IMG/VR virus record: IMGVR_UViG_2718217715_000009
From: a virus
Taxonomy: Duplodnaviria > Heunggongvirae > Uroviricota > Caudoviricetes
DNA: 48,944 nucleotides
Direction: 5' to 3' (one strand)
A program made the position numbers. Every line of letters starts with the position of its first letter. The stretch's first letter is position 1. Below, in pieces: positions 15,001 to 18,000 of this stretch.

Positions 15001-18000
15001 CCGTCACCTTCAGCACATCATCAGCACTGTAACCATATTCACGCATCGAGGCAGCCGAACGGGCAAACAGGGCCGCATTATCCGAAAATGCGGTGCCTGT
15101 CCGCTGGCTGATATCCATCAGCACTTTCTGTGATGACGCAAATTCATCCGATGACTGCGACGCCTGTTTCAGACGGGCATTCACGGAGCTCCATTCATCC
15201 GCCAGCGAAATCAGGTGTCCGGTGGCAAAGGCACCGGCAAACGCACCGGTCATTCCGACAGCCGAAGCGCGGATTTCCGTCAACTGGCTGTGCAGCTCAG
15301 CCAGAGCCCGGCGCTGCTCCCTGGCTGCCGCAGCAGCCTGACGTCCGCCATTCTGCAGGGTCCGGTAATATTCACTGCCCATACGGGACGCCCGCTGGAT
15401 CTCCGACTGGAATGACTGTGAATTTGCCGAAATTTTGATAATCAGTTCACGTAACGTCGCCATTCACCTTTCTCCGGGCAAAAAAAACCTGCCACAGCAG
15501 GTTTTCATCATTATTTATGACATTGCTGCAAGGCTCAGCGCGTCTTCCAGCGCCGCAAACGGATCCACCTCCGGCTTATCCTCATCCTCGCCCCAGCAGA
15601 GCATGGCGTCCTTCAGTGCAACATTCATCCCCTGTGCCCCGAAAACCGCTTTCACGATCTGTGCATTACGGATATCCCCGCGCTCATCACCCAGCGGGGA
15701 TACCCTGTCGAACTCCATCCACATCATCGCCTCGCTCGCACTCAGGCTGTGGCGCAGTTCGGATAAGGTGCGCCCCAGACGGAGCGCAAGTCGCATCAGA
15801 AAGCGAATTTCCGGGCGGGCTACTTTTTTCTGGCCGACTCTGCATCAGCGATCAGTTCCAGTGCCTGACGCAGCAACCGGGCATGTACCGGACCATAGAC
15901 GGCCAGCACCTGCTCACGGTCGTCCGGAGTGAACACCCGTTGCAGGTCCGTATCACACAGGACATCGCAGAACAGCGTCACATCCGCTTCCAGGTTACGG
16001 CGGGTTTTCGCCACCACCGACAGGGTATCGTCATCCTCTCCATCACCATTGAGCACTTCCTGCCACAGATACCAGGCCTCTGCCGAAGGCTCCCGCAGCA
16101 CCACGCTGACATTACCCCATTCCGGCACCTTCACCGTTTTATGACGAAACCCTGACAGTCTGGCCAGCGCCAGCGTTTTCAGATCCTTTTTCATGATGAC
16201 CCATCCCCTTATCCGGCGGCTGCGCTCACTGTCACGGTGCATTCAACAGACGTCACACTCTGTGCTTTCTCTGCCGAATCGGTCACCACACAGGTATATT
16301 TCCCCGCATCAGCGGACTGCGCACCTGGCTTACTGAAGGTGTCTGTCGTCTGCCCGTCAACCGGCTGACCATCCTTCTTCCAGGCGTATTTATACGGCGG
16401 CGTTCCCCCGTTGGCACTGACTGACATTGTCAGCAGCGCACCGGTATTCACGGTAAGTGTCTTATCCAGATTTTTCACAAACGCCAGCGGTACCACAAAG
16501 GACACCGGTTTGCCTTTCAGACGCAGTGAGAACGTTGCAGCCACCACGCCGTTGGTACCGGATGACCAGGTGTGCTGGCGCACTTCCGCCAGGAACTTAA
16601 AGCCCTTACCGGACGGAAACAGCACCTTAAACGCATACACCGTGTCATTGTCATAGGCATCACGCAGGGCGTTCTGGGCCTGATTCAGATAAAAATTACC
16701 CGACATGGAAATCTCAGACGACGCCCCCCAGACCATTGATGTTCTCCTGCTCTGTGGAGCAGAGCGTGGTCACATCAATATCCTGTTTCTGCCCGGCGGT
16801 GAACTGCACTTCCTTGATGGTGCAGTCCAGGCGCAGATATTCCGCCTTATCCATAGTTTCAGCAGTCGCCGGGGCAGATGAAATCATCACCTGCGTCAGC
16901 TGTGAGCGTTCATACAAAGCAGACATTCTGCCTCCTGATAATAAAAAACCCGCACGCGGCGGGGTATGGGTTTTGTAGAAAAAAGAAAAAGTCACACCGT
17001 GACCTGAAACTCCAGGGTTGCACGGTAACAGCGGTTTTCCGGAATATAGTCCTGCATTTCACTGACGGATCCCGGGGCCAGCAGCATTATGGCTTCACGG
17101 GCGTCCTGACGTATCTGACGCGCCTGCGTCACAGTCCCGGCATAAACGTCTATCTGCACCGACACTGAGGACTCCGCCTGCCCGCCCATCACGTCCGCTG
17201 ACACCGATGAAATCAGGCTGAAAACCACCCACGGAAGCGCCACCGACGGCCTGCCATCCAGCAGGGGGACCACATACGGGTACACCTGCCCGCCGGCAAG
17301 ATGCGCCAGATGAGGATACAAATCCGCCTCCGTCATCGTCTCAGTACCTCATCAATGGCCCGGTTCATCCGCGCAATCGCCACCTGTGCCGCCTGTTCAC
17401 TGCGCACATCAAATGCCGGGCGCACAAACGGGTGCGGTGGCATATTCACGGTCCCCATTTCCACAAACCGCCAGTAGAAAGCGTTGCGCGGGTTATCCGC
17501 CTTCATGGTGTTATCGCTGTTACCGGTGTCCGGATTAACACCCCGGATATGCACACCGGATTCCATCCCGCCATCGCGGGAGCGCCGGGAAAGGACCACC
17601 ACATTGCGGCGCAGTTTTCCCCTGCGTACCGGTGCCCGTGACACCACTTCTTCTTTCAGCACATTCGCACCCGCACGGGTTGCCTCACGCAGCACCCGGT
17701 TATTTTCTGCACCACTCAGAAGCTGCAAATCGCGGCTGATGTCCTCCAGCCCCGAAAAATCCAGCAGGGTTTCGATCATTTTTCACCTCCCAGCCGACAG
17801 AGAATTTCCAGACGTCCGCCGGTCGCATCCGGCACGGGCAGCCCGACAACGTTCAGGATCCGGTCACGCCAGGGACCACTCAGCACATGAAGTCGTGACG
17901 CTGCCGTGATTTCCCGACCGGACTGACCGCGCACCCAGATGCGGATTTCCGCCTGCGCCATTTCCGCACCGGACTGCATCCGCTCCCGGCTGCTCCTGCC

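Follow-up and report, generated by a model that had tools for sequence, protein, structure and literature searches.

The major tail protein of phage lambda, gpV, consists of a tube domain that is followed by a C-terminal Ig-like domain. Closer relatives of the locus described here are found in the functional Stx2c phage 2851, whose major tail subunit (CAQ82046.1 / YP_009909249.1) is encoded by a V gene of 717 nt, and in the Sakai prophage Sp6, whose orthologue ECs_1549 is a single open reading frame (ORF) of 717 nt with a run of five G residues (G5). The Sakai prophages have been described as elements with accumulated morphogenesis defects that undergo inter-prophage recombination and can be rescued in trans (Asadulghani et al. 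2009, PMC2669165). Sakai Sp6 itself was scored as defective, with faults in the portal, head, and minor tail functions and with the host-specificity genes absent, while its major tail gene was recorded as intact ("+") (PMC2669165). The prophage was still excised and transferred at low frequency, which was credited to help from other prophages (PMC2669165).

The stretch of DNA analysed here (the window, 48,944 nucleotides) is the counterpart of Sakai Sp6, that is, an Sp6-like lambdoid prophage located between potB and potC. It shares with Sakai Sp6 the potB/potC site, the cargo genes espK, espN, and nleL (espX7), and the absence of J and the tail-fibre genes, but differs in two respects. The major tail gene of the window is frameshifted where that of Sakai Sp6 is intact, and its V allele has been replaced by an allele of the 2851/Sp12 type. 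From one end to the other, the window holds an IS2/effector region (espN, nleL); tail, head, lysis, and replication modules; and an integrase gene adjoining potC. The place of J and the tail-fibre genes is taken by the type III effector cargo nleL, espN, and espK, and two of these genes lie in the right arm of the prophage (1..9500), namely espN at 2082..5483 and nleL at 6074..8422. Further contents of the right arm are an IS2 copy interrupted by an internal stop, what is left of nleB and gogB, and, at 1551..1714, a 164-bp sequence that repeats the 3' end of espK, a gene that itself lies outside the window. Compared with the corresponding prophage of strain 4276, the window is colinear, with 100% identity over the first 25 kb and two differing sites in the remainder, both in the left half of the prophage. 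The first, at 40849..40854 in the replication-gene region, is one additional CTCAGG unit of a short tandem repeat, and the second is a single A/T substitution at 45888, in an exonuclease-like gene that PGAP marks with an "internal stop". An apparent 718-bp length difference between the two sequences turned out to be an artefact, in which the 164-bp internal repeat had been joined to the main match.

The tail-tube (major tail subunit) gene of the window lies on the minus strand at 16209..16926 and measures 718 nt, one more than its intact orthologues. Its true start is the ATG at 16926..16924, which is preceded at a distance of 4 nt by the ribosome-binding site AGGAGG (16931..16936, minus strand). 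Between the tail-completion gene and this ribosome-binding site, a terminator-like GC hairpin with a T run (CCCGCCGCGTGCGGG TTTTTTATTA) is located at 16949..16963 on the minus strand. The reading frame changes within a G6 homopolymer (16724..16729, minus strand; CCCCCC on the plus strand), where intact alleles have G5 and read CTG GGG GCG (codons 66-68). In the window, the frame through the run reads CTG GGG GGC GTC GTC TGA. Translation of the N-terminal frame (16714..16926, minus strand) gives 67 native codons beginning with the ATG, then Gly-Val-Val, and then the premature TGA (16716..16714) four codons past the G6 run, so that the N-terminal product has 70 amino acids, 67 of them native. 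The C-terminal part continues in the +1 frame at 16209..16723 (minus strand) with 171 native codons (residues 68-238 when the protein is intact) and ends at the stop codon at 16209. The initial annotation had described the halves as 93 and 175 codons long. Two mechanical minus-strand ORFs of these sizes do meet at the run (16714..16995, 93 amino acids from a GTG start, and 16209..16736, 175 amino acids), but the coding parts come to 70 codons (67 native) and 171 native codons. The longer downstream ORF begins at a candidate re-initiation site on the minus strand (16734..16748), in which AGGAG (16748..16744) is separated by a 7-nt spacer from an ATG (16736..16734) in the downstream frame. Re-initiation at this site, giving an N-truncated product of 175 amino acids, is possible judging from the sequence.

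When one G was removed in silico, the repaired protein of 238 amino acids gave a match to PHROG 158 ("major tail protein") that spans residues 1-237 (E = 2e-117). The order of genes around it is a gp17-like tail completion gene (tail terminator), V, chaperone G, T, and the tape measure gene. Both homology and operon position therefore place the gene in the siphovirus major tail (tail-tube) protein family, and it is identified as the tail-tube gene on these two grounds. A tube domain occupies residues ~8-141, and the frameshift at residue 67 falls inside it. An Ig-like C-terminal domain follows at residues ~149-227, where Ig_3, Ig_2, and I-set all score above the Pfam cut-offs. The curated cut-offs were not reached by three tube-related families, namely Phage_TTP_11 (24.6 versus a gathering cut-off of 28.4 bits), Phage_TTP_12 (17.5 versus a gathering cut-off of 26.1 bits), and Phage_tail_2 (23.3 versus 23.8 bits). 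The fold is thus probably related to the lambda gpV-type families, with membership remaining below the cut-offs. The protein resembles lambda gpV in its position in the tail operon and in its two-part architecture of tube and Ig-like domains; it differs from gpV in having an Ig domain of Ig_3/I-set type and lambda-type tube matches that stay below the cut-offs. The name "gene V" given in the initial annotation is hence apt as a functional label for a tail-tube gene with a C-terminal Ig domain, but is not backed by a lambda-type Pfam tube family above its cut-off.

A megablast search of phage records with a 761-base query covering the gene returned 93 matches, in which intact genes align over 760 bases. 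One intact reference is the major tail subunit gene of phage 2851. It is colinear with the window and 99.5% identical at the nucleotide level over 761 bases, and the genes around it are arranged alike (tail terminator, V, G, T, tape measure). The sole length difference between the two V genes is the change from G5 to G6, which is likewise the one indel relative to ECs_1549 of Sakai Sp6 and through which one ORF of 238 amino acids in phage 2851 becomes, in the window, a frame with a stop after 70 codons. Both in this alignment and in the comparison with phage 2851 over 14 kb, the two halves are colinear with the intact homologue and separated from it by a single indel. The two ORFs are therefore the halves of one genuinely split gene and not a chance juxtaposition, in agreement with the initial annotation, which had read them as one major tail protein gene frameshifted within G6. 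The comparison of run lengths with orthologous V genes that it had called for gives the same picture, with G5 in the intact orthologues and G6 in the window. Phage phi330 (PV189401) appeared to be a fellow carrier of the split, as it matched over 761 bases and has its gene annotated in pieces. It was rejected because it has G5 at the site, and its own extra G sits 160 bases downstream as an unrelated indel.

The length of the run was then counted in 5,426 complete E. coli genomes with queries of 44-47 bases. Each 28-base seed takes in the entire run together with a flanking base on either side, and with seeds of this design megablast reports exact run lengths only. G5 was found at 1,194 places in 906 genomes, G4 at one place in one genome, G6 (46-mer) at 14 places in eight genomes, and G7 at no place in any of the 5,426 genomes. 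Seven chromosomes of the same database match the 761-base query, G6 included, at 100%. The carriers of G6 are the O157:H7 strains 4276, 9234, 2159, 2149, 1130, NE92, and Gim1-1, together with NCCP 13918. Strains 2149, Gim1-1, and NE92 are neighbours on a published tree (PMC10758439). In 4276 and NE92, PGAP (RefSeq) gives exactly these bases the label "major tail subunit, frameshifted".

These counts bear directly on the reading that the true run is G5, the gene intact, and the sixth G an error of sequencing or assembly. Single-base errors in G/C runs are a known weakness of long-read assemblies, all three morphogenesis frameshifts of the window fall in G runs, and most of the carriers share one laboratory and one pipeline. 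Nevertheless, an identical G6 recurs at 14 places in eight genomes and in none of the ~900 other genomes with the tail-tube gene, including dozens of G5 genomes produced by that laboratory with that pipeline, and it is always tied to one flanking haplotype. For NE92 and Gim1-1, two rounds of polishing of the PacBio assemblies were followed by Pilon correction with Illumina reads (PMC10758439), and NCCP 13918 stems from a separate project. As a single institution is the source of seven of the eight carriers, independent confirmation is provided mainly by NCCP 13918 and by the Illumina polishing of NE92 and Gim1-1, and short-read polishing is weak inside 2-kb repeats common to several prophages. 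Taken with the Illumina-based correction, the same allele on a common haplotype in eight complete genomes, one of them from a separate project, leaves a homopolymer error highly improbable. This option, which the initial annotation had listed, is effectively excluded. Its other option of a genuine inactivating mutation is upheld by the presence of the allele in eight genomes, including Illumina-polished hybrids, on a common haplotype and by the PGAP label "frameshifted". G6 is found in independent assemblies of related strains, as is expected of a heritable mutation; it is inherited and confined to one clade. We therefore consider the locus, with high confidence, to be a genuine and vertically inherited +1 frameshift pseudogene in the Sp6-like prophage of a small O157:H7 sub-lineage.

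The origin of this pseudogene would be the addition of one G to the G5 run at codons 66-68, most likely through slippage during replication. Ribosomes that begin at the normal start would then terminate at the TGA and yield a fragment of 70 amino acids without most of the tube domain and without the whole Ig-like domain. To judge by this truncation, the fragment would be unable to form a tube subunit, and this copy of the gene would no longer supply tail-tube subunits. As J and the tail-fibre genes are missing and frameshifts are also present in the capsid and portal genes, the frameshift in V is an added defect in an element that is already non-autonomous. For the host, losing this gene copy should therefore make no selective difference.

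A full-length tube protein might also be made from the split gene by recoding, either through a +1 ribosomal frameshift at CUG GGG G or through transcriptional slippage on the G run. A mechanism of this kind is plausible in so far as the Gly-tRNA on GGG would, after a +1 slip, again find a perfect GGG match and thereby restore the exact wild-type protein, and a bona fide programmed frameshift is located 0.9 kb downstream, in the genes of the G/T chaperones. In that pair, the slippery sequence A AAA AAG (15829..15823, minus strand) stands directly before the TAG stop (15822..15820) of chaperone G (15820..16194), and the T frame (15515..15796, minus strand) follows. By its sequence, A AAA AAG is the expected site of a lambda-like G/GT programmed -1 frameshift. 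Although it belongs to the same operon, the G/GT shift is kept in all relatives and gives two needed products, whereas the split in V occurs in one clade only and lies inside the tube domain. The two-frame form of V is not conserved, with the single-ORF G5 form at 1,194 places and G6 at 14, all in one clade. Moreover, the 94 nt downstream of the run are less stably folded than shuffled controls (z = +1.19), and GGC, which comes next, is frequently used in E. coli, so that no pause is expected. Neither a stimulatory structure nor a slow codon was thus found beside GGG-G. The G6 run also falls short of the run lengths known to permit efficient transcriptional slippage. Ig-like domains are said to be appended to phage structural proteins by programmed frameshifts in the systems of Fraser et al. 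2006, which resemble the present gene in that a structural protein with a C-terminal Ig-like domain has a change of frame upstream of that domain. In those systems a complete structural domain precedes the shift, which is conserved and placed at the 3' end of that domain, whereas the shift of the window interrupts the tube domain midway, at codon 67, and almost no relative shares it. Recoding that delivers the full-length protein is therefore scarcely credible; spontaneous +1 slippage at GGG-G may still give a trace of it.

Rather than as an inherited pseudogene, the gene could be regarded as a phase-variable locus, in which frequent and reversible switching of the G run turns tail production on and off. 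The mutation is indeed a change in homopolymer length, and two strains have G5 in one of two prophage copies where other strains have G6. The census is nearly monomorphic, however (G4, 1 place; G5, 1,194; G6, 14; G7, 0), and runs of 5-6 are below the usual length at contingency loci, which typically carry longer ones. The G5 copies of strains 4276 (Sp9-like prophage) and Gim1-1 (Sp6-like prophage) are not revertants either, but different alleles brought in by recombination, with SNPs within 20 bp on each side of the run. Neither the census nor the flanking haplotypes show the frequent and recurrent length polymorphism among close relatives by which contingency loci are recognized, and we assign this explanation a very small probability. 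The remaining option of the initial annotation, a slippage-prone tract, holds in so far as a one-off homopolymer slip is concerned, but the length of the run is otherwise stable, with G5 at 1,194 of 1,209 places.

The distribution of the G6 allele within the carrier genomes points to exchange between prophages. In six of the eight, the G6 46-mer matches two loci, namely the Sp6-like prophage and an nleA-bearing Sp9-like prophage that is located ~0.6 Mb away from it. Gim1-1 carries G6 in the Sp9-like copy only and strain 4276 in the Sp6-like copy only. Around the G6 run, the window and the Sp9-like prophages of NE92 and Gim1-1 share an identical tract of 2,045 bp (16579..18623, minus strand), from which it follows that G6 was carried across by inter-prophage recombination. 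The V allele of the window is of the 2851/Sp12 type and differs from that of Sakai Sp6 at 8, 8, and 44 positions in the three successive thirds of the gene, while the Sp6-like copy of Gim1-1 keeps the allele of the Sakai Sp6 type. This replacement forms a mosaic patch of ~1 kb (16000..17000) that covers V and the start of the chaperone G gene, with 93 differences in 1 kb from the same prophage in Gim1-1 and Sakai and identical flanks on both sides. The simplest reading, on sequence grounds, is one insertion that was followed by patchwise homologous recombination, and it fits better than independent recurrence or reversion. The mutant allele would thus have moved between co-resident prophages by homologous recombination (gene conversion). 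An intact V gene is kept in a third prophage of NE92, so that tube subunits are still available in trans.

Across the ~14 kb of the morphogenesis region, only three coding indels separate the window from phage 2851, and these are located in the capsid gene, the portal gene, and V. The indel in the prohead protease/major capsid gene (21255..23191) is a change from GGG to GG at ~22191 on the minus strand, relative to both phage 2851 and Sakai Sp6, and amounts to a -1 frameshift. A diagnostic 42-mer for the GG allele was found at 31 places, in exactly the eight genomes that carry the G6 allele of V and in no other genome among the 5,426. Each of these genomes has three to four prophage copies of it, compared with one to two prophage copies of the G6 allele. 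Apparently, one inactivating capsid mutation has been homogenised across all co-resident prophages of this type. A broader interpretation would be that the copying of inactivating frameshifts in head and tail genes among all co-resident prophages of the Sp6/Sp9/Sp10/Sp12 types goes beyond neutral drift and is favoured, which we regard as unlikely, if less so than the alternatives discussed above. If true, such a "concerted pseudogenisation" would be driven either by biased conversion or by selection on the host to disarm its prophages while retaining their effector genes, and would constitute a route of prophage domestication that acts on a whole prophage family at once.

As an inherited pseudogene, the split V gene carries little weight in itself. 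It is an ordinary product of prophage decay that RefSeq already flags as "frameshifted", and is one more pseudogene in a prophage whose defective state was known before. The sole mildly interesting point is the multi-copy spread of the G6 allele and, more strikingly, of the capsid frameshift. Together, the G6 allele and the linked GG allele of the capsid gene are clean markers of a small O157:H7 sub-lineage (eight of 5,426 complete genomes), and their presence in several copies within one genome is a dated and concrete example of rapid exchange among co-resident lambdoid prophages. Such exchange bears on how effector-carrying prophages, Sp6 for example, stay mobilisable only with the help of their neighbours.

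The third indel, a change from G6 to G5 relative to phage 2851, is located at 19694..19698 (minus strand) in the region of the "portal" gene (18465..21043). In the G5 form, this region contains two ORFs of 454 and 405 amino acids that overlap by ATGA (19679..19682), and in the G6 form the two are fused into one ORF of 859 amino acids, as in phage 2851. The ORF of 454 amino acids holds the complete Phage_portal domain, and for the repeat-rich ORF of 405 amino acids no convincing match was found in Pfam. Neither state is rare, with G5 at 520 places in 399 genomes and G6 at 1,386 places in 797 genomes, and Stx phages already described, 1717 and Stx2a_F349 among them, have G5 as well. The G5 form, which PGAP labels as "frameshifted", may thus be a viable two-gene arrangement. 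Past the portal domain, inside the ORF at 18465..19682, tandem repeats of ~162 bp (54 amino acids, including PMLEQMVKEAVSHIPVPRDGRDYDPDVLQKAV) extend over ~18925..19520 on the minus strand. The annotated gene of this region measures 2,502 nt in Sakai Sp6 versus 2,580 nt in phage 2851, a difference that is possibly due to the copy number of the repeats.
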